DNA of 62,962 bases, the filler included, from Collodictyon triciliatum (lineage: Eukaryota), in NCBI GenBank assembly GCA_043381765.1. It is 10 parts of 10 records of this genome, joined end to end, with 100 filler letters (N's around TTAATTAATTAA, not from the genome) between each part and the next. Parts side by side here need not be neighbours in the genome. Positions count along the whole stretch, not along the records: positions 60,978 to 62,962 come from JBHJMP010004503.1; 9 more parts are not named here. One strand, 5' to 3'. Position 1 is the first letter of the stretch, and each line of letters starts with the position of its first letter. This document shows, piece by piece, positions 22,240 through 62,962 of this stretch. A model generated the notes under the pieces. That model ran no database searches. It was not told the DNA's origin and saw nothing but the letters and a program-made list of their open reading frames with translations. A program made the position numbers and the translations under genes.

Positions 22240-22922
22240 CTGTATTTAAAATTAATGATGGCATTTATCAACAAGAAAAAAAAAGTTATCATAATTATGA
22301 TAATAAAACAATACCAACTTATTAAATAAATAAAAACGAGCACGAAATATCTTTTCTTTTTTCTTTCCTTTTGTTTATACTTGATATTNNNNNNNNNNNN
22401 NNNNNNNNNNNNNNNNNNNNNNNNNNNNNNNNNNNNNNNNNNNNNNNNNNNNNNNNNNNNNNNNNNNNNNNNNNNNNNNNNNNNNNNNNNNNNNNNNNNN
22501 NNNNNNNNNNNNNNNNNNNNNNNNNNNNNNNNNNNNNNNNNNNNNNNNNNNNNNNNNNNNNNNNNNNNNNNNNNNNNNNNNNNNNNNNNNNNNNNNNNNN
22601 NNNNNNNNNNNNNNNNNNNNNNNNNNNNNNNNNNNNNNNNNNNNNNNNNNNNNNNNNNNNNNNNNNNNNNNNNNNNNNNNNNNNNNNNNNNNNNNNNNNN
22701 NNNNNNNNNNNNNNNNNNNNNNNNNNNNNNNNNNNNNNNNNNNNNNNNNNNNNNNNNNNNNNNNNNNNNNNNNNNNNNNNNNNNNNNNNNNNNNNNNNNN
22801 NNNNNNNNNNNNNNNNNNNNNNNNNNNNNNNNNNNNNNNNNNNNNNNNNNNNNNNNNNNNNNNNNNNNNNNNNNNNNNNNNNNNNNNNNNNNNNNNNNNN
22901 NNNNNNNNNNNNNNNNNNNNNN

Positions 22923-22976: not shown

Positions 22977-25900
22977 CTTTCGTTCCTACAGTCACCACAG
23001 TAAAAAAGAATTTCACTAGGAAAGCCAGTGTCAGTCCCCCAAGAGTTTTCCATACAGCCCCATGTCTTATTTTTGAATGAATCGTATTTTGCGAATTAAA
23101 AAAATTATATATGTTAGGACAGAGTAAAATTTGGAAATTTGGGGCTACAAACATTACCTGCATATAAAGTATAGCTCATCATATTGAAATGACCCTTCGC
23201 AATCAGAAAAAAGCTTTCCAATAAGTTCAGCCGAATTCATTCTTTGATAAAGTGTGCAATGTTTATTATTGGAAACGGTTAAAAAATCAAGGTATGTTTG
23301 ATTAAATTAATCTATGATCTTTTGTCAACAGTTTTTTTTATAACGAGGGGTAAGCTAAAGCTCATAGATTATGTGTAAGATGGCGTGCCTGAGGAAAGGA
23401 GAATAGTAGCATACTAGCGAGGTAATCGTGATGTTCATCATGACCTCTTGCACTGGGTAATTAGACACAAAGGAAGATTTCCTCATCTGACACACATATA
23501 CATTCAAACGAATGAAAAGAGCTCCAAGAAGACCTTACAAATGGAATAGTGCAAATGAGCATACTTCAGATTTCTTGTTCTAGAATAACCCATCCATAAA
23601 ACTAAATAACTTTTTCAAAATATCGCACAATTTTTATAACAAACCTCCGCATATCCCAAGAAATATGAAAAATGGCATTTCAAACCAAAACCATGGGATT
23701 TGGTAATCAACTTCATATAGCACCATCTTGAATGAATGTGCCGGATTTACATACTAACGTCATTTAGAAGAAGAAAAAATGTCAGACATCCCTCAACATA
23801 ACAACTTAAAAAAATGAAAGTGACATTTTTTTAAGATTTTCAATAGTGTCATAATTTATCGAATAACTATAAGCAAGTATTGTTACTAAAAGGAATTCAG
23901 ATTAATTAGATAAATTTAGGAAGGCATAGTACTCTGCTTGGAAAAAATCACACCCTAATCACGACGGCAGCTGTGCTTGCGCAGAGAAAAGAGCGTAACA
24001 TTGTTTTATTCGGAAAGAAAGAACTAGCTTCCTATATTTATAGTACAAATATGAGGGGAAAATAAGCAGCTAAGTTGTCGATTTTATGAATTAAATTCAT
24101 ATTGACCACAAGGATTTAATAAAGGTTGCGTAATTACACGTTCCAAAAGGACGGATGGAGATTTAAAATATGTAACGGAGAAGGAAAAAGATATGATATT
24201 TCATTTCATTTGATAAAGTAATTGTATTTCTATACTTCGAGACTAAACAAAACTCCTCCAATTGGAGCACTAAATGCAGCAGAAACCCCGGCCGCTGCTG
24301 CTGCAGAGAGAACTTCACGGCGCTTAGCTAGTTTTTTATATATTGATTAACTGTTCAATCAAAAGAAATGATAGAAAATGAAAAGAAATTGGTGTAATTA
24401 TGTCGCGAATGTGGACGTTATTTCTTGAAAAAATGCAGATAAAGATAAAGCATATTGAAAGATATACATAATCGATATTGGTTCAAAAGATAAGGTTATG
24501 TTACCGACAATCACCTTCATTGAGTCTATACTTTCTGAATATCCCAGAAAAAATATGACCGCAACAACATGCAACATGAATCATGGGCCCTTCTTTTCCT
24601 ACATTCAATCCAGACCCTACAGACATTATCTACAATAGGATTAGAGGTGAAACCTCAAGAGTTTGAGGGAAAATTTAAAAAGAGATGAATTTAGCTTCTT
24701 TTTTACATTCAGATTACATAAGCATCTCTATTGTTCAAAAAAAAAAAAAAAACAGCTAGTGACGGAAAAAAGAGAGAATAGGATATACGATTGCGATATA
24801 ATCAAATGATTTTTCTTTGTGAAAAATGTCACTTCTATGAATAATTTAAGATGAAATATGAAAATAAAAATAGAAGTACCAATCCTATGCATTTAATAAG
24901 TAATGTCCATGCGCCTAAGTAGCCTTTCATGATAAACCCGCCGAGTATAACCTTAATTTCAGGTATTCCGCTTCCTGCAGCAGAAGGACAATACAGCTTG
25001 ACGAACCAAGCACTTAAACCAGCTGCGATAGCCTAATGCAGAATAATATGTGAATAAATTTGTACCAAAGACATGAAGAGACGCAGCCAAACAACCAGCT
25101 ATTTACTTAATGATATTATGTATGCACATAAAATTGTTAATATCTGTACACGGGCGATTAATTGTATAAAATACTTCGAAACGGAGAAAATTAAAATGCT
25201 ACATACCGATACTAGAACGAAGAACAAATAGTTGATGTAATCACCAGCGCTGGGAGAAGAAAATATAAGGTCCCCCCAATTCGACCACGATTCACAAGCC
25301 TCCTCTATGGAAGAAAGGGGTTAGCTCGAACTTTCATGCCATGCAATCCAAGCAAGTATATTTTACAGTGCGCCATTGATAGGTCTGTCAGTGTGCATGT
25401 TTTGGTAAGGAAACAGGTTATTGAGATCATACTGAGATGTCTTATTATATTATGTGCTCTGNNNNNNNNNNNNNNNNNNNNNNNNNNNNNNNNNNNNNNN
25501 NNNNNNNNNNNNNNNNNNNNNNNNNNNNNNNNNNNNNNNNNNNNNNNNNNNNNNNNNNNNNNNNNNNNNNNNNNNNNNNNNNNNNNNNNNNNNNNNNNNN
25601 NNNNNNNNNNNNNNNNNNNNNNNNNNNNNNNNNNNNNNNNNNNNNNNNNNNNNNNNNNNNNNNNNNNNNNNNNNNNNNNNNNNNNNNNNNNNNNNNNNNN
25701 NNNNNNNNNNNNNNNNNNNNNNNNNNNNNNNNNNNNNNNNNNNNNNNNNNNNNNNNNNNNNNNNNNNNNNNNNNNNNNNNNNNNNNNNNNNNNNNNNNNN
25801 NNNNNNNNNNNNNNNNNNNNNNNNNNNNNNNNNNNNNNNNNNNNNNNNNNNNNNNNNNNNNNNNNNNNNNNNNNNNNNNNNNNNNNNNNNNNNNNNNNNN

Positions 25901-26880
25901 NNNNNNNNNNNNNNNNNNNNNNNNNNNNNNNNNNNNNNNNNNNNNNNNNNNNNNNNNNNNNNNNNNNNNNNNNNNNNNNNNNNNNNNNNNNNNNNNNNNA
26001 AATCTAAAATACTTAAACAACTAATGGGGTGTCAATTGATCAAGGATGTGGTATACCTGCAAGAAAAACCACAATCCAACCTTGAGATGCATCGCATGCC
26101 TTCCAGACGAACCCGATGTAGCTTTTTTCCCACTGTTCAGTAATAAAATGTAAGAATATTGGTTAATAAGCGCACAAAAACCGTTCGAAATCGAGATACA
26201 TTTTTTCTCTGCAAAAATGTTAAAAAAAAAATCGCATTTGGACATTTCCCGTGATTTTTCATAGTGCAAAAGAAAGAAATTGGGAATTATCCTTATAGTT
26301 CAATCAATAAAATGTAAAATAAGCTGTTCTATAAGAGGGATGTGAGGAAAAAGTGAGACATTGAGGTGAATCAATAACCTGGTCATGCAAAGACCTGACT
26401 CGACTCATATCTTTAGAGCTATCATACATCCAATCTATTAGAGCATAAAAGGATAATTTTATTTTCAATTTACATACGAGTCAAAGTAGAGTGCTTGAAC
26501 CCCTCAATCATTATATTTTACTTGTAAAAATATACAAATGAAAAAAAGAAGTGGACATGAAAAATAATTGATGGAAAACCAATTGTCGGCAAGTCCTTAG
26601 AGATGTGATTGTGTTTAGTGGTCATATTCTGAGTTGTGTTCGGCCATATTCTCGAGCGATGAACCTATTCATAATTTTGGCGATTTCAAAAGAAAACAAG
26701 CGCCTGATTTTTTATGGTAAAAGAAATCAGGAAGCAGTATATAAATATAAAAGGGGGTGGGGAAGAGAATTCGTTCGCTTCAAAACGATGTCAGTGTGAA
26801 TAAATGAATTATAAAATTGTGTGACAGGAGGACTGAACATACAAGGTTGCTTTCATCTTTCCCGCTTTGCCGTGTTTCCT
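22977..26880 (-). CDS. CLC chloride/proton antiporter, CLC-3/4/5 (Gef1)-like, N-terminal ~60%
   Basis: Spliced minus strand: [30 protein letters not shown] (gating Glu), [12 protein letters not shown] (proton Glu), [32 protein letters not shown]. The C-terminal helices and CBS domains are not in the window. Confidence 0.92.
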
Positions 26881-54437: not shown

Positions 54438-56256
54438 ATGGCATCATCGCAAAGTACGTCGGGTCTAGAATTAATAGCTCGGGAATTACAAAATATATGG
54501 ATAAATGAGCCAGTCGAACTACTCACAGAGCTTGGGAAGGGAAGTTTCGGGCGAGTTTATTCTACAACGTACAAAGGATATGATGCGGCCGTAAAGATTC
54601 AAAGTGTGAAAGGGACAAAGGAGCTTGGCTTCAGCGAAGTTATCGACTCTCTTATTCTCGAAGCAAAATATATGCATGATTGCCGAGAGCATGAGAACAT
54701 TGTCAAGTTATTTGGTGTTTATCGAGAAGATGAGGATTTCTTCATGGTAATGGAAAATGCAGGTACTACGTTGAAAATTTTTTTGGAGAAAGAAACTTCG
54801 CTGCTAGAAGTATCAAAAATTGTATCATACTCAAGACAGATATGTAACGGCATCATGTTCATGCACTCAAAGAATCTCTTCCATGAGGAGTTAACAGCCG
54901 ATAATATCATGGTTGCCGGAGAAAAAGTGAAAATCGGAGACTTTGGAATCGTGAGCCTTCGCGGTCCTGAAAAAGTTGGTTCTAACCTACCAACACGATT
55001 CGGAGAAGCTAAACAAGGCGGTACATCAAACTGGCAAGCTCCAGAAATTCATGATGTTGTCTGCAAACCATATTACGAAGATGGTATTATGTATGGTGAT
55101 GATGAAATCAATATCGGACATCGTGGAGAGCCGAGTAATATTTATGCTATCGGGTTACTTGTTTGGTACATGTTCTCTCGAACGGAGCCGTTCAAGAATG
55201 AAGCACAACCTGAGAGCTTTACAATCAGAGGCTTGAGGCCGGAAATACCAACGAGCATCCCAAGGGAGTTGCAACATTTGATAACATCATGTTGGAGGCA
55301 AAACTACAAGCTACGTCCAACTTTGCGACAGATATCCAAATACCTGGATGACCTGTTATCTAGTGGGCTGAGACTGTCTCAAGAATATATCATCGAGATA
55401 CTTCCGATCACGTATTCTCCTCTGATAGACATGTACAAGGGAGAGTTTGTAGAATGGATTCGAGACTGTGGATTTCAAAAACTAGGTGAGAAGTTTGCTG
55501 ATGAGGTTTGGGTGACAGTGAGTGAAATCCAACACAATTTGAGCGAGGAGGAAATGATAGCATCTTATCACATAAGTATGTCTGATGTTTCTGCATTTAC
55601 TAAGCTATCAGAACAGAATGTAGAGGAAGGAGGTTTGGGTGTTTCCAAAGTGAAAGTTAGGGAACTGAGGCATTTCCAGTTGGCGAGCTATTTACAAAAG
55701 AGGAATGACGAATTATCCCGTGTGCTGCTGAGAAAGGTGAAGGCCTTGAAGCTTACTGGTGACGCAATATCGAGACTTCATCAACCTAACGAGCGAGATA
55801 CTTATTCTATCAGCGAGGAAAATATCAAGCTGGCAGCTCAGATGATATCTGATTATCAAAAAAGTAACTGGACAACAAACCTGCAAGACTCCGAGATACG
55901 GGTAGAAGAGAAAGCCCCAACATACTTTGTTCAGAAACTTGTCCCGAAGGATGAAGTAAGGACTAAATAACATATAGAAAAAAATGTATTTCCTTCATGA
56001 TTCTTGTGGTATTGAGGCTTTTAAGGTAAGCTTTACTTTTTGACACTAGGATTTGATTGAATTACAAGACTTTGTTCCTCCCAACACTGTTACGACCAGG
56101 GATATTCCAGATATGCATCAGGAAGAATCAGTCAATCAAAATCCCATCACCCCACGACAAGAATCTCCGAAACCTATCGCGATTGAGGTGAATGAGCCAA
56201 CCTCAGCAAAGCCCCACAGAACCTCGTGCTCAGAAAGGGGGTGTCTTTTGATTTAA
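54438..56256 (+). CDS. TKL-like protein kinase (putative pseudokinase) with SAM-like region and C-terminal CaaX; two exons (54438-55955, 56050-56256)
   Basis: GKGSFG, AAVK, DFG and APE are present but HRD reads HEE. Phase-0 intron GTAAGG(55956)...CTAG(56049) joins in frame to an exon ending GCLLI*. Confidence 0.82.
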
Positions 56257-57328: not shown

Positions 57329-60300
57329 CTAAGCGTCATTATTGGCCTCGAACTCTGATTCGAGTGTCTCATGCACCTGGGACGAGACAACAATATTCCA
57401 TGCCTCTCTTATCAGCTCGTCCGTGGGTGGCAAGTTGCTTTGGAGTGTGCTGTATTTGTCGGGAAATTAATGGGATTAAATGCTTCTCAAAATATTATTT
57501 TGAACATGTAAAAAAAAGCTGCCCTTATTGTATAAGGGAGAAGAGGTGAGAATTTTTTGTACTTATCTATTCTTAAGAAATGATAAGATTGCTTATAAGG
57601 AAAAAAAAAGGAAAAAAAGGAAAAAAGGCTCACCGAAAGTAGTTGAGAGTCGATTCAAAGTCGAGAGCAACAATCTGGTCTAAATGGTGATATTATATAA
57701 AACATTAAGACTTATTCAACTAGGTTTTTATTTGTCATATTTATCATCTTTTTTATATTATTTCTTTTCTTTCCTCTTAATCCCTTGCTAATTTTTATCA
57801 CATTTTTATTTTCATCTTTTTATTAGGTTTGGTTTTCGTTGGTTTTTGTTTTATAAAATATAAAAGTTAGTGATTGTCCCACCTTGAACGTGTCGCATGA
57901 TTGCAAGTGCAACACGAAGGAGGATATTCAGGTTCTTTTCGGCTAGAAGAATATCCCAAATCCGGTAGACAACTAACAGAGTAGAATATTTTAGCCTCCA
58001 CATAATTACAGCAATGAGGGGAAATGTGCATGCATCAGATGACAATTACAAATCAGAACAAACCTGGAAGAGGGAAGTTGTAAGAATACAATGTTATAAA
58101 CCAATGATTGACGTACAAACTAGCCTCGATGCTATATCCTTTCTGTATTTCGGCGCAGGTTAGTTAATTAAAAAAAAAAAAAAACAGCTGACAAAATCAA
58201 TACATAGACATGTAAATAAATCGTATTGTATTAACAAATCAGAACTTCTGCGAGAAAATAAATCGACACATAGATTAAGATAATAAAAATAATGTTCATA
58301 AGCGTACCAGATGATTATGAAGTTTAGGTAGAAGGTGCTCCAGAATCCTATCGAACTATAATTTGATGGAAATATCGAGTTTAGCGGTAAGCTTAAATCA
58401 TATTAAATCGCTCCAAAACTACATGGCATCAAAAGACATAAAATGAAAAAAAATGGGATTATGGTGTGTTTCATTCGCTTGTATTATTTGTTGTTTGTTA
58501 TTTGTTCATTTGTTCATTTGTTCATTTGTTCATTTGTTCATTTGTTCATTTGTTTATTTGTTTATTTGTTCATTTGTTCATTTGTTCATTTGTTCATTTG
58601 TTCATTTGTTCATTTTTTATTTATTTGTTTATTTGTTTATTTGTTTATTTGTTTATTTGTTTATTTGTTTATTTGTTTATTTGTTTATTTGTTTATTTGT
58701 TTATTTGGTCATTTGGTCATTTGTTTATTTGGTCATTTGTTTTTACTTTTGTTCTTGTTTAATATGAAAAAAAAAAAGCTGAGGTCATCAAAAGGCATGA
58801 GACGGAAAAAAAGTACACCTTGTACATCAAAAGTCTTATCGCTCTTGCACCAGGCTGGAAAAGCTCGTTGAGGTGAAGCGTTTTCATTAATTGGACATAC
58901 GTCCAGAATGCCTCCTATACATAATTATTGATAAGGTCATTCATGAATATACTCGAATTTTTTTATTTTATTTTTTTTGCATTTAATTATACATATGTGT
59001 ACAAATTTTGATAATTAAGTAATAAAAAAAAAAATACTTCGGGTTTCATAATCAACAGCAATATCCCGCCCACAAAATTCATTCCTTGGCAATAACCAAT
59101 CGATTGGTCTAAAACAGAGTATGCTCGCAAGAGGTCTGACAGTAGCTTCTTTCTGGAGTTCCATATGATTATATATTAGAATCCATTGCGGTTGGTCCAC
59201 ATTCTTAAAAAAGAAAATACACATTTGCTCCCAAAAAAATGTGCATCTGTCTGGGTATATCCACCCAGAAATTATGAGGATATTTTTTTATTTTTTATTT
59301 ATTTATTTTTGCATATTATTTGCTCACCCTTCAGCAGAGTCCCTGAACATAGGATGATCTGGAAATGTTCTACTCACGTCGTTGCCAATTTTATGCTCAA
59401 CACAACTCTTGGAGTTGACGAGGAACTAGAGCGTGGAATGGGGAAAACATGTAAGGAATTTATTTGGAAAAAAAAAACATAACATCAATAGATATGTAGA
59501 AACATGCGAGTAGAATCGTGAGTAAGGCAAACTTCATAAACTCCTGGATTCTTTTCGATAAAATCACAGCTGCACGTAATTGTTTTCCATATGTCTCTTC
59601 GCATGTTCTCGGGAAACCCACTCCAAACAAGCGTAAGAATCTGGGAATGAACATAGATATGTATGAGCGATGAATTGCCAAATTGAGTAAATTAGGAGAT
59701 GTGAGAGTTTAATAAAGAATTAAGCATATGCACAGATTAGACAAGATGACAAGAAAACATAGGCCAGGGGGAGAGGGATAAAAGCTTAGGGATTGAAGAC
59801 ATCTATTCACCTTTCGCTCCTTGATCTTTTCTTGTCTCCAAGTCTGCGTGATTTCGCTGTAATCAGCGTCACGGTTATCGGTTGAATTTATCTTCAGGGG
59901 CAGCGAAGTAATCGAATGGCGAAATGAAAAGGCGGCAGGTGATAATACTGCTGTGGCCCGCATGAAAGATGGAACGCTGGTAGAAACACGGTGTAGATTG
60001 GACGAATGCATGTCTTCTTTAGACTCTGCTCTCCGCAATGGGATTCTGGTCATGGGCGGTGTCTTCTTGCCGGTCTGATTCTTTGTGCTGTCAGCGTTCG
60101 AAGTGGGCGACGTCGGTCCAGTTGAAGGCAACACAGTGATGTCTGGCACACTTTGAGAGCGATGCGGCATATTGCTTTCCCAGGAATGAACTCCGTCCTT
60201 TTTGTTACATAACGGATTGATAATCATGAACAACAGGAAAGTATTTATCATGAGGGAAATGCTCGCCAACCTTGTGAGTTCGCTTCTGGGATGGAGAGAA

Positions 60301-60357: not shown

Positions 60358-60640
60358 GTTTTCACTTAAAAGAAAAAAACCAGAGAAATGGGTCAGGTGT
60401 GGAAATCTTCTAGTCGATTTCTTTGGTCGATGGTTGCAGAAAGTGTTATATCGGGATGCAATGATTTTTCAGTCTGCCAAAGAACGCGGTATATGTGGTG
60501 AAAATAGGCTATTCTATTGGTTAATTCTAGGGTGGGTGTTTTTTGTTTTATTTTTTGTTTTATTTTTTGTTTTATTTTTTGTTTTATTTTTTGTTTTATT
60601 TTTTGTTTTATTTTTTGTTTTATTTTTTGTTTTTTTTTTT

Positions 60641-60722
<82 letters not shown>

Positions 60723-60977
60723 TTTTTTTTTTTTTTTTATTTTTTTTTTTATTTTTTGTTTTATTTTTTGTTTTATTTTTTGTTTTATTTTTTGTTTTAT
60801 TTTTTGTTTTATTTTTTTGTTTTATTTTTTTGTTTTATTTTTTTGTTTTATTTTTTTGTTTTATTTTTTTGTTTTATNNNNNNNNNNNNNNNNNNNNNNN
60901 NNNNNNNNNNNNNNNNNNNNNTTAATTAATTAANNNNNNNNNNNNNNNNNNNNNNNNNNNNNNNNNNNNNNNNNNNN

Positions 60978-61113
60978 AGCAATGGCCCATCAGCTTTGGT
61001 AGTGCTAATCAACTGTAGTAATTTGGCTTTCAGCTAATCGCGTTTTTTAGTGGCCAAGCCAGCAGCAGGAACAATATTCCCCAAACTGCGTTAAGCCCCA
61101 GAACGTTAGCGGC
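60978..61113 (+). repeat. attC-like repeat, copy 1 (5' truncated by contig start)
   Basis: Differs from copy 2 by 3 substitutions over about 130 nt. Ends ...AAGCCCCAGAAC-GTTAGCGGC. Confidence 0.88.
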
Positions 61114-61122
61114 AACCTTAAT

Positions 61123-62046
61123 ATGACAAACCCTCCTAGAAACCACCACTACGTGCCTCAATGTTATTTGAATTCTTTTACAAACTCCCAAAAGAAATTT
61201 TGGAAGATGCGTATTGATAATAATAGGATTTCAGAAACTATGCCTGTTAAGGTCTGCTATGAAATTGATTCAAATCGATTTAGAAACAAGCAATTACTAG
61301 AAATAAATAATCTTGACGATGAATATTTCATCGAAAAACACTCCTTTAAAATTCAGGAAAATAATTTTAGTAAAGCTCTTCATGAATTAATCAAGTTCAA
61401 AAAAGAGCAAATAATAATTGATAAAACAAGGCACCAAATTTTTCTTGAAACACTGGTTACTATAAAGAGAAGGAATCCCGATTCAAGAAACAAAATAATT
61501 CAAGTTTTTAAGGAAAGCTATCAAACTCAGGAGGGCATTCAAAAATTTTTAGAATTTTTTTTAGAAGAATCGGGCAATCAAAAGATTACTCCAGAGATCA
61601 AAATTAATATAAAGAATTTTCTTGCAAACGAGTCACAGGATCCCAATCGTCTTCATGATATGTATCTTAGTGCTTACTTGAACAAGGTCGATTATACAAC
61701 GATTGCCAATATAACCCGTGATTTCTATCATTTAAAGCAATATATACTCCATACTCCTATAGGTCAACAGTTTATAACTTCAGACAATCCCGGTTTTACA
61801 TTAGCGGGCAATACAATCATTAGTCTTGGCGGTTTAGGAGGTCGATTTGAATTTTATTTTCCGCTTTCGCCAACAACCTGTCTTTATCTGAAATCAACAG
61901 ATATAGAGCAAACCGATGCTATCGAAAAAATAATATATCCAGTGATGATTAACAAGTCTGACGTAACCCAAATCAATAAAGCAACAAAATCAATAAGCAT
62001 GAAAAATGTTTTTGCTTATAATAAGGAAACACTAGAAAAATTGTAG
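61123..62046 (+). CDS. DUF4238-like bacterial protein (gene cassette 1)
   Basis: Intronless 307 aa. N-terminal HHYVPQCYL, FITSDNPG and YFPLSPTTCL match the DUF4238 pattern as recalled; no HMM run. Confidence 0.8.
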   Translation: MTNPPRNHHYVPQCYLNSFTNSQKKFWKMRIDNNRISETMPVKVCYEIDSNRFRNKQLLEINNLDDEYFIEKHSFKIQENNFSKALHELIKFKKEQIIIDKTRHQIFLETLVTIKRRNPDSRNKIIQVFKESYQTQEGIQKFLEFFLEESGNQKITPEIKINIKNFLANESQDPNRLHDMYLSAYLNKVDYTTIANITRDFYHLKQYILHTPIGQQFITSDNPGFTLAGNTIISLGGLGGRFEFYFPLSPTTCLYLKSTDIEQTDAIEKIIYPVMINKSDVTQINKATKSISMKNVFAYNKETLEKL

Positions 62047-62049
62047 GCA

Positions 62050-62221
62050 GCCGCTAACAATAGGCTTTACGCAATTTGGGTTTCAGTAATGGCCAATCAG
62101 CTTTGGTAGTGCTAATCAACTGTAGTAATTTGGCTTTCAGCTAATCGCGTTTTTTAGTGGCCAAGCCGGCAGCAGGAACAATATTCCCCAAACTGCGTTA
62201 AGCCCCAGAACGTTGTGCGCA
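62050..62221 (+). repeat. attC-like repeat, complete copy 2 (~167 bp from CGCTAAC to GTTGTGC)
   Basis: AAC (62056-58) and GTT (62212-14) cores. Inverted arms GGCTTTACGCAATTTGGG (62063-80) and CCCAAACTGCGTTAAGCC (62187-204), 16/18 paired. Confidence 0.9.
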
Positions 62222-62226
62222 ATTTT

Positions 62227-62844
62227 ATGAACCCTGTACGTTTAGAAGATACTATAAAATTTTTGAAGGATAATATCGATCCACTTGAAGATATTGCATA
62301 TGGTCCTGGCTATAGAGCTTCAGTATTTTTATTAGATGGTACATATTTGCCATGCGTCATTTTCCGAAATTCTAAAACAATAATTGACTTAGCTATAAAT
62401 CGGTTTAAAAAAGAGCAGACAGCCAACAATTTATTTCAAAGGTTTTCAAATCGTAAATATAGAGAAGCTGTAAAGACATTTGTTGCTAGTGGTAATAGTA
62501 TAAAACTTAGTGATATTGGAAAGGTCCAAAAAAGTCGTTTTGCTTTTCCAATAAGTATCCACAATCAAATAAAGGGAGAAACTGCAATGAGTTGGACTGC
62601 ATTTGTTGCAAAATTCAAAGATGGAAGATTCCTTAGTTTTGGTACAACTTGGAATTGGGAATTTTTTGATTTGCCTGAAAATTATCTTGTAGAGGATATT
62701 ATTGAAATAATAAATCATAGCTATATAACAAAAACAGGCGAGATTATTCGACACGGATCTATAGATAGGGCACTTCAATGGGATAAATTAGAAACAATTC
62801 ATAGACCACGTCAATTTTTTGATTGTTATTTAGATCATTTGTAA
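62227..62844 (+). CDS. Hypothetical bacterial protein (gene cassette 2), 205 aa from ATG 62227
   Basis: Intronless ORF filling the interval between two repeats. The ORF-track GTG start at 62215 lies within the repeat core. Confidence 0.8.
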   Translation: MNPVRLEDTIKFLKDNIDPLEDIAYGPGYRASVFLLDGTYLPCVIFRNSKTIIDLAINRFKKEQTANNLFQRFSNRKYREAVKTFVASGNSIKLSDIGKVQKSRFAFPISIHNQIKGETAMSWTAFVAKFKDGRFLSFGTTWNWEFFDLPENYLVEDIIEIINHSYITKTGEIIRHGSIDRALQWDKLETIHRPRQFFDCYLDHL

Positions 62845-62869
62845 CATGACTTAAATGAAAATATAATAC

Positions 62870-62962
62870 TGCGCACAACAATAGGCTTTACGCAATTTGG
62901 GTTTTAGCAATGGCCCATCAGCTTTGGTAGTGCTAATCAACTGTAGTAATTTGGCTTTCAGC
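62870..62962 (+). repeat. attC-like repeat, copy 3 (3' truncated by window end)
   Basis: TGCGCACAAC-AATAGGCTTTACGCAATTTGGG... matches the copy 2 left arm and the copy 1 body. Confidence 0.88.

Follow-up and report, generated by a model that had tools for sequence, protein, structure and literature searches.

We analyzed a stretch of DNA of 62,962 nucleotides (nt) from the Collodictyon triciliatum assembly GCA_043381765.1 (the window), which consists of ten pieces joined by linkers of the form N44-TTAATTAATTAA-N44. The last piece (positions 60978–62962; 1985 nt, 34% G+C) belongs, as a stray fragment, to an integron-like cassette system that is widespread among Chitinophagaceae from fresh water and soil. 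In this system a tyrosine recombinase, here named the array-adjacent recombinase (ARR), stands at the head of arrays of gene cassettes separated by long repeats resembling the attC sites of integrons. The array architecture, the hybrid nature of the sites, the exchange of attI and attC contexts by one cassette, the absence from ARR of the insertion found in the integron integrase IntI, and the co-occurrence of ARR with the arrays were observed in this piece and its relatives; the activity of the recombinase and its choice of strand are inferred from them. We put at roughly 0.8 the probability that the piece derives from a chromosomal Chitinophagaceae cassette array, the attI-like site and attC-like repeats of which are recombined by ARR in the manner of an integron.

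Three copies of the repeat, all on the plus strand, were located in the piece. Copy 2 (62047–62221 including its cassette-specific bases) is the sole complete one and runs from AAC at 62056–62058 to GTT at 62212–62214. It begins with the R'' side GCAGCCGCTAAC, followed by the spacer AATA, an 18-nt arm (62063–62080), a middle part of ~106 nt, the second arm (62187–62204), the spacer CCAGAAC, the GTT and the bases GTGCGCA, which are specific to cassette 2. The arms pair with two mismatches, T62068·T62199 and A62074·C62193, the second of which becomes a G·T pair on the bottom strand, and the spacers are of unequal length (4 versus 7 nt). Copy 1 (60978–61114) lacks its first ~31 nt at the contig start and corresponds to positions 32–153 of the nhmmer model; its GTT at 61105–61107 leads into the cassette-1-specific bases of GTTAGCGGCA. 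Copy 3 (62870–62962) comprises only the R'' side and the first part of the repeat (~85–95 nt) and is stopped by the end of the window and contig. The copies, with a repeat length of ~160–170 nt, differ at few positions. The initial annotation, made from the sequence of the piece, had described three copies of such a repeat, with 18-bp arms carrying two mismatches, unequal spacers and R boxes departing from the RYYYAAC/GTTRRRY consensus. The repeat is present where it had been placed, although copies 1 and 3 proved to be truncated; the arm and spacer positions were confirmed in copy 2, and the strict consensus is obeyed only in part.

Each interval between repeats holds a single open reading frame (ORF) in the same orientation. 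Cassette 1, counted from G|TT to the next G|TT (61106–62212, plus strand), is made up of ORF1 and repeat copy 2. ORF1 (61123–62046, plus strand) encodes 307 amino acids (aa) of the DUF4238 family (Pfam PF14022, E 3.6e-37, 128.8 bits); its ATG at 61123 lies 15 nt past the GTT, and its stop codon TAG (62044–62046) directly abuts the first base of the R'' complementarity at 62047. Cassette 2 (62213–62962, plus strand), which is incomplete at the window end, contains ORF2 (62227–62844, plus strand; 205 aa from its ATG, no Pfam family) and the start of copy 3, with the ATG at 62227 being 12 nt past the GTT. The proposal that co-oriented single ORFs start close behind the repeat core was thus upheld. 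A search of the cassette proteins with PADLOC gave a weak DUF4238-Pers match for ORF1 (21.4 bits), on which we claim no defence role, and a Cas11b match at chance level. No matching family was found for the piece in Rfam at E values up to 10, a search already suggested in the initial annotation, apart from small nucleolar RNA, microRNA and CRISPR direct-repeat matches at chance level.

The decisive feature of the window lies outside the AAC...GTT core, where the bases are specific to each cassette and mutually complementary at its two ends. In cassette 1, GTTAGCGGC at 61105–61113 is complementary to GCCGCTAAC at 62050–62058 (6 of 7 variable positions, run of 9), and in cassette 2 the same holds for GTTGTGCGCA (62212–62221) and TGCGCACAAC (62870–62879; 7 of 7 variable positions, run of 10). 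In both window cassettes the site lies between an inverse core (...AAC) and a core (GTT...) that is part of the next cassette, as in integrons. Where neighbouring repeats were separated by less than 1.5 kb, all 16 pairs (2 from the window and 14 from related genomes) had six or seven complementary bases among the 7 cassette-specific ones, as compared with 57 of 1399 non-adjacent control combinations; since some cassettes are shared between genomes, the 16 pairs are not fully independent. In a further 16 genomes, the complementarity that starts at the GTT extended over 8 nt or more in 62 of the 73 adjacent pairs less than 2 kb apart (control, 119 of 3000) and over exactly 10 nt in 47 of these 73. 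As judged from their base pairing, the complementary cassette ends are the hybrid-site signature of integron recombination at G|TT, a property described in a passage of PMC7923331 as being left by G|TT recombination between folded or paired sites in integron arrays.

The relatives of the piece lie in the Bacteroidota, as had been proposed for the piece itself. A 25-nt repeat pattern matched only at five places, in Sediminibacterium sp. C3, S. salmoneum NBRC 103935, an uncultured Sediminibacterium metagenome-assembled genome (MAG) and Aquirufa rosea CAR-16; Sediminibacterium belongs to the Chitinophagaceae and Aquirufa to another class, Cytophagia. These four repeat-bearing genomes are referred to as G001 to G004 (G001, Sediminibacterium sp. 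C3; G003, A. rosea), and L numbers denote the fetched regions. When the whole repeat was used as a BLAST query, the four genomes returned 10, 17, 1 and 17 matches at 74–92% identity, clustered and co-oriented; the complete copy 2 is 78–92% identical to repeat copies of these genomes. An nhmmer profile of the repeat gave 45 rows in the fetched regions (two of which duplicate an overlap, with a few weak ones), including a variant class of ~180 nt. Neither ORF1 nor ORF2 was found in the four repeat-bearing genomes. Relatives of ORF2 with 58–65% identity occur in seven metagenome contigs (L125–L131), where one lies between repeats (L125), one directly after a repeat (L126) and one on a contig with a partial repeat (L127). 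The search was extended with an iterated repeat profile to 20 further loci, namely regions downstream of ARR genes in other genera. In 16 of these 20 regions ARR lies upstream of co-oriented repeats, amounting to 122 sites, every one of them downstream of ARR and on its strand; two size classes of 110–125 nt (26 sites) and 170–195 nt (76 sites) can be distinguished, and the arrays reach 27 sites in 20 kb.

Long, structured, multi-copy intergenic repeats are also what a self-spreading element of the REP (repetitive extragenic palindrome) or MITE (miniature inverted-repeat transposable element) kind, or a terminator-like element, would produce, in which case the resemblance to cassettes would be a coincidence. 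A few solitary or paired copies do lie off the main arrays, at ~0.91 Mb in G001 and at ~2.02 and ~2.22 Mb in G002. However, the copies are otherwise clustered and co-oriented, with 122 of 122 sites on the strand of the recombinase, and they sit at ORF ends with flanks that are cassette-specific and mutually complementary. A scatter irrespective of ORF boundaries and orientation, which the initial annotation had regarded as decisive against an array, was not seen, and we consider this explanation hardly credible.

Evidence for mobile cassettes comes from the junction at which the arrays begin. In five of five recombinase-proximal loci, the motif GCGTAnnTTTAAG(T/A) is found ~200 nt past the ARR stop codon and is followed by GTT; in the related loci this attI-like site reads GCGTAnnTTTAAGT|GTT. 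Exactly at the GTT the flanks of all five loci diverge fully into cassette-specific sequence. The attI-like site and the repeats have only the GTT in common and no arm, as is the case in integrons. Moreover, a cassette of ~530 nt is ~98% identical between S. salmoneum (L054), where it lies behind the attI-like site, and the MAG (L048), where it lies behind a repeat. The identity begins exactly at the GTT, while the upstream sequences are unrelated up to the preceding base, which shows by alignment that the same cassette occurs in an attI and in an attC context. This finding is incompatible with a self-spreading repeat. The integron-type layout that had been proposed from the piece alone is therefore borne out by the inverted cassette-specific ends, the strict co-orientation, the positions at ORF boundaries, the attI-like junction and the cassette common to attI and attC contexts.

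Two other loci call for brief mention. The A. rosea contig L049 (11.9 kb) carries the attI-like junction and one repeat copy, 91% identical to that of the window. Of its recombinase only a C-terminal part survives, in a frame of 175 aa, and it has cassette ends that recur in S. salmoneum. This combination suggests either lateral transfer or that the contig is foreign to the A. rosea assembly. In the MAG, a cassette with its own GTT junction (L048:5099) contains two overlapping ORFs of 80 and 137 aa directly before a repeat (L048:5163–5815), a pair that has the look of a toxin-antitoxin module by eye only.

The recombinase was identified by searching with the integron-integrase model. In G001 (two loci), G002, G003 and G004, ARR heads the array and has the orientation of the repeats. 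Its matches to the model stop at model position ~179 and resume at ~239, and none is over the cut-off. Against a TIGR02249 cut-off of 265 bits, ARR scores 183.5 and 178.3, the match falling into two stretches, and on PRK15417 (cut-off 435) it scores 128 and 118 bits. With 202.4 bits on XerA_Arch (cut-off 220), 172 on XerC (335) and 163 on XerD (330), it reaches none of the XerC, XerD or XerA equivalog cut-offs either. When ARR was aligned with the Vibrio cholerae integrase VchIntIA (2a3v), 25 residues stood opposite 65, corresponding to a gap of 40 residues. An alignment of 19 sequences places the insertion ...ALDRKYPNA..W.WQWVFP..., the additional domain around patch III, in six true Bacteroidota IntI and a gap at this position in eight ARR, one recombinase of the type that accompanies IS91 transposases (IS91 partner) and four Xer proteins, while the C-terminal SP(L/V)D tail is common to ARR and IntI. 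By the features that define that class, as judged from these comparisons, ARR is not an integron integrase, being below the cut-offs and without the IntI insertion, and it is assigned to the Xer/IS91-partner type. The initial annotation had suspected a divergent recombinase behind a distinct cassette system; a tyrosine recombinase is indeed found at the array end in the related loci, and it lacks the ALDRKYP...WQWVFP insertion for which it was tested.

In a quick tree search of 50 rows, from which L062 was left out because the G002 recombinase is interrupted by a stop codon, ARR formed one group with a support of 82 (97 without one long branch), the IS91 partners were sister to ARR (support 92), and IntI and Xer formed separate groups (support 98 each). 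Close homologues of ARR are mostly ~400 aa long and are named XerD or tyrosine-type recombinase in their sources, never integron integrase; separate, more distant Xer-like genes are present in the host genomes. ARR usually has an extra N-terminal domain of ~70 residues. An AlphaFold model (m0fae1ebcad23, protein P0012) of moderate confidence (pLDDT 71, pTM 0.42) predicts an N-terminal beta-alpha domain (residues 1–71, confidently predicted), a linker and the usual two domains, and the structural neighbours of this model are archaeal XerA (5hxy, E 1.5e-16) and VchIntIA (2a3v, E 2.8e-15). In the Foldseek alignments, which cover ~290 columns, no match to the N-terminal domain was obtained; on the basis of the model it may be an arm-type DNA-binding domain. 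An IS91-family transposase gene (NF033538, 406 bits) and its partner recombinase were found inside a cassette array of G001 (L053:7092–9063), and a similar pair is present in L050; the L053 partner is the closest sampled relative of ARR.

The distribution of ARR was compared with that of true IntI. At E ≤ 1e-70, ARR was detected in 78 of 201 sampled Chitinophagaceae genomes, mostly as a single copy and often at contig ends, and in 21 of 401 sampled Bacteroidota genomes. True IntI over the TIGR02249 cut-off was found in 113 of the 401 Bacteroidota genomes, where it scores 400–497 bits over its full length, in 1 of the 201 Chitinophagaceae genomes and in 0 of the 4 repeat-bearing genomes. The first of these figures is far above what was suggested by the published surveys that we consulted. 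The portion of the IntegronFinder 2.0 report dealing with Bacteroidetes gives only In0 elements and one complete integron, in Salinibacter (PMC9024848). A 2024 preprint (10.1101/2024.07.02.601686) names Bacteroidota as one of the clades in which earlier work had seen no integrons. Passages in PMC8618304 and PMC9668308 list the phylum among those with integrons detected.

These counts bear on the possibility that the piece belongs to an ordinary array of the CALIN type (clusters of attC sites lacking an integron-integrase), with long attC sites served by a canonical IntI that is encoded at another genomic locus or by a mobile element, and with ARR as a bystander. True IntI is common in the phylum, and AAC/GTT R boxes and hybrid sites are hallmarks of integrons. 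Against this stand the scarcity of IntI in the family and its absence over the cut-off from all four repeat-bearing genomes. The position of ARR argues in the same direction, since it heads the array next to a conserved attI-like junction in five of five loci and is followed by co-oriented repeats in 16 of the 20 further ones. In addition, the repeat profile of the ARR system gave 0 matches within 10 kb of eight true IntI genes. A regular-expression screen for canonical attC near true IntI genes found nothing, but it had no positive control and is therefore given no weight. Self-BLAST revealed direct repeats near all but one of these eight loci, most numerous at four. The only IntI array whose repeats were read, L136 (example span L136:10028–20000), is a classical array with different attC sites of ~105 nt, a bulged base and divergent orientation. 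A standard attC beside a typical intI, the outcome that would have deprived the system of its novelty according to the initial annotation, was thus not seen in the repeat-bearing genomes, and an ordinary CALIN is very unlikely.

We then considered the structure of the repeat and the strand on which it might act. The 18-bp inner stem is kept, gap-free, in 36 aligned copies. Three of its pairs show compensatory changes, with TA in place of CG in 6 copies, GC in place of AT in 3 and AT in place of GC in another 3-copy case. The stem is also kept across the two size classes, the middle parts of which are unrelated. At one position each of the 36 copies has A·C on the top strand and hence G·T on the bottom strand, while the other mismatches are variable. 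Counted over 648 cells, the inner stem has 550 Watson-Crick pairs, 17 wobbles and 81 mismatches on the top strand, and 550, 44 and 54, respectively, on the bottom strand. The outer stem has A opposite C at position 11 in 40 of 47 cassettes, with pairing resuming beyond it, and positions 12–15 are fully paired in 28 of 47. No extrahelical (bulged) L-box base, the feature by which the bottom strand is marked in integrons, was present in the 36 aligned copies, in agreement with the earlier description of mismatches in place of the classic extrahelical base. The conserved G·T positions of the bottom strand are a hint, drawn from the alignment, as to which strand is used. RNAalifold recovered 11 of the 18 inner-stem pairs on the top strand. 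The minimum free energy of the whole repeat was no better than that of shuffled sequences (z −0.08 for the bottom and +1.02 for the top strand), so that the structure of the repeat rests on comparative pairing only. The bottom strand was on average 0.6 kcal/mol more stable; among 160 related copies, 92 favoured it and 66 the top strand, which is weak evidence for its use.

These properties leave room for another explanation, in which ARR is an ordinary Xer-like enzyme acting on double-stranded core sites with inverted arms (xxxxxxxAAC / GTTxxxxxxx) and the hairpin is incidental or has another role, for instance as a terminator or a site for an accessory protein, with no folding of single strands. 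In VchIntIA the IntI insertion contacts extrahelical bases, and ARR lacks it. The absence of a bulged base from the stems of the 36 copies, the unremarkable whole-repeat fold and the small energy difference between the strands likewise speak for this explanation. On the other hand, the maintenance of the inner stem by compensatory changes across size classes with unrelated middles, the two conserved A·C positions that turn into G·T on the bottom strand only, and an attI with GTT but no arm in common with the repeats, as in integrons, argue against it. We regard action on double-stranded sites as unlikely, although it is the most serious of the alternatives.

Several observations, including the two energy comparisons just given, weigh against an integron-like system driven by ARR or limit its generality. 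In the piece itself no recombinase gene was found within the 1985 nt, as the initial annotation had also noted. The exact attI motif occurred in 0 of the 20 loci of other genera, and 4 of these 20 regions, of which three hold 3 kb or less, contained no repeats. Complementarity of the cassette ends was missing in 11 of the 73 adjacent pairs and in most repeat pairs lying farther apart; the eight failing distant pairs in the window and the four genomes are either interrupted by an intron or probably span undetected sites. Four of the seven metagenome contigs with ORF2 relatives (L128–L131) carry no repeats. The tree has no reliable root. The 315-aa ARR of G001 lacks the N-terminal domain, the ARR of G002 has an in-frame TAA, and in G003 only a 175-aa frame is left; since several ARR genes are damaged, some arrays may be fossils. 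Finally, PMC9668308 and PMC8138268, with reference to Messier & Roy 2001 and MacDonald 2006, report that the IntI insertion is necessary for integron recombination. A passage by Smyshlyaev et al. calls the insertion "not fully conserved" in their integron-like subgroup (PMC8138268).

Taken together, a cassette consists of one promoterless ORF and a long attC-like site of either ~115 nt or ~160–190 nt. In this site the two ends of the cassette pair to give an outer stem of ~10–15 bp (xxxxxxxAAC ... GTTxxxxxxx). An asymmetric internal loop, with 4 nt on one side and 6–7 nt on the other, separates it from the 18-bp inner stem with its invariant A·C on the top strand, which is a G·T wobble on the bottom strand. 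In a complete locus a co-oriented ARR is followed, ~200 nt downstream, by the attI-like site where the array begins. According to the integron-style mechanism that we favour, ARR, as the presumed catalyst, would bind the AAC/GTT-centred outer stem and the attI-like site and exchange strands at or beside the G|TT of attI and attC-like sites, and cassettes would be excised as circles and re-inserted at attI in the fashion of integrons. The folded bottom strand would serve as the substrate, with the conserved wobbles possibly marking the recombinogenic strand in place of extrahelical bases. Tentatively, and at slightly less than even odds, the system may represent a second lineage of integron-type gene capture, in which an insertion-less recombinase related to Xer and IS91 partners acts on folded hairpins and reads the strand through the G·T wobble/A·C positions in the two stems, possibly with the help of the N-terminal domain, and which in the Chitinophagaceae would occupy the place held by canonical integrons in other Bacteroidota.

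Sedentary chromosomal integrons consist of IntI, attI and attC sites, the latter usually being 57–141 nt long, with VCR (Vibrio cholerae repeat) sites of ~120–130 nt in the Vibrio superintegron. The ARR system resembles them in its layout, in which a recombinase gene is followed by an attI-like junction and then by a long series of co-oriented, promoterless cassettes that mostly hold one ORF. It also resembles them in the ...AAC/GTT... bounds, the complementary cassette ends and the apparent crossover at or beside G|TT, and in sites that are homogeneous within a lineage while the cassette content is strain-specific. It differs in that its recombinase has no IntI insertion, stands apart from the IntI group and is co-oriented with the cassettes, and in that its sites have conserved A·C/G·T positions and no bulged base. 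The main class of ARR sites, at 170–195 nt, is longer than usual attC, as had been noted for the window repeat, and the outer stem is 10–15 bp instead of 7. The canonical Bacteroidota integron L136 (G371:C1:1888400–1908399) comes from the same phylum and likewise has AAC/GTT-bounded sites between short ORFs. However, its IntI is full-length, over the cut-off and equipped with the ALDRKYP...WQWVFP insertion, its array is divergent from intI, its ~105-nt attC has an L box with an extra base on one side (AAGCGTTTCAAGCGG against CCGCTTAAACGC), and, as with other true IntI loci, the ARR-system repeat profile gives no match.

The recombinases that accompany IS91 transposases are the nearest sampled relatives of ARR and have the same domain layout without the IntI insertion, but they are followed by an IS91 transposase gene and not by an attI-like site and cassettes, and at 275 aa they have no extra N-terminal domain. 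Xer recombinases act with dif or pdif modules, the dif-like sites being 28 nt long. ARR is likewise a simple Xer-type tyrosine recombinase, whereas its sites are hairpin-forming repeats of 115–190 nt with cassette-specific ends. In one fetched region we also observed a group II intron (L057:957–2840; Rfam RF01999, 80 bits, and RF00029, 59 bits, for the one copy run) lying in the GT|T of the R' side of a repeat, in cassette orientation, with an ORF of 420 aa containing reverse transcriptase and maturase domains. The same intron 5' end follows seven repeat copies, in L050, L052 (two copies), L057 (two copies), L059 and L060. Like group IIC-attC introns, it is an intron with a reverse transcriptase/maturase ORF in a recombination site; unlike them it runs in the direction of the cassettes and interrupts the GT|T on the R' side. 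The known introns, according to a passage of PMC7923331, are oriented against the transcription of the cassettes and occupy the bottom strand at R'' (TTGT/T).

The remaining nine pieces of the window (1–60877) have a eukaryotic look. They contain long T-rich microsatellites (e.g., 58450–58785 and 60530–60877), a protein-kinase ORF of 510 aa (54438–55970; PF07714, E 1.7e-38) and two N runs of ~535 nt (22389–22922 and 25462–25999). Because the other pieces look eukaryotic, the bacterial contig is probably a contaminant or an associate of the eukaryotic assembly, and it probably represents a fragment from a Sediminibacterium-like member of the Chitinophagaceae (Bacteroidota) that was co-assembled with the eukaryote. 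Its first 57 nt are identical to its last 57 nt (60978–61034 and 62906–62962), so that the contig starts and stops inside the repeat at both sides. To end in a repeat on both sides appears typical of an assembly break or loop, as occurs at multi-copy sequence; a tandem or circular unit of two cassettes is a possible alternative for the identical ends.

Integrons are defined, and sought, via the IntI-specific domain and canonical attC models. The ARR system has the logic of an integron with a different recombinase, and it would therefore be invisible to IntI/attC screens. It is common (78 of 201 genomes) in a family where true IntI is nearly absent (1 of 201). Should ARR prove active, the additional domain of IntI would not be required for cassette capture, and the system would offer a natural comparison for how strand and site choice are encoded, by wobble positions as opposed to bulged bases. 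The system would also explain assembly breaks at such loci and stray fragments in the assemblies of other organisms, and the arrays would constitute a large untapped cassette reservoir of freshwater and soil Bacteroidota, including defence-like genes such as DUF4238. We found no prior description of an ARR cassette system in the full-text literature, a search that left supplements and subscription journals outside its range.

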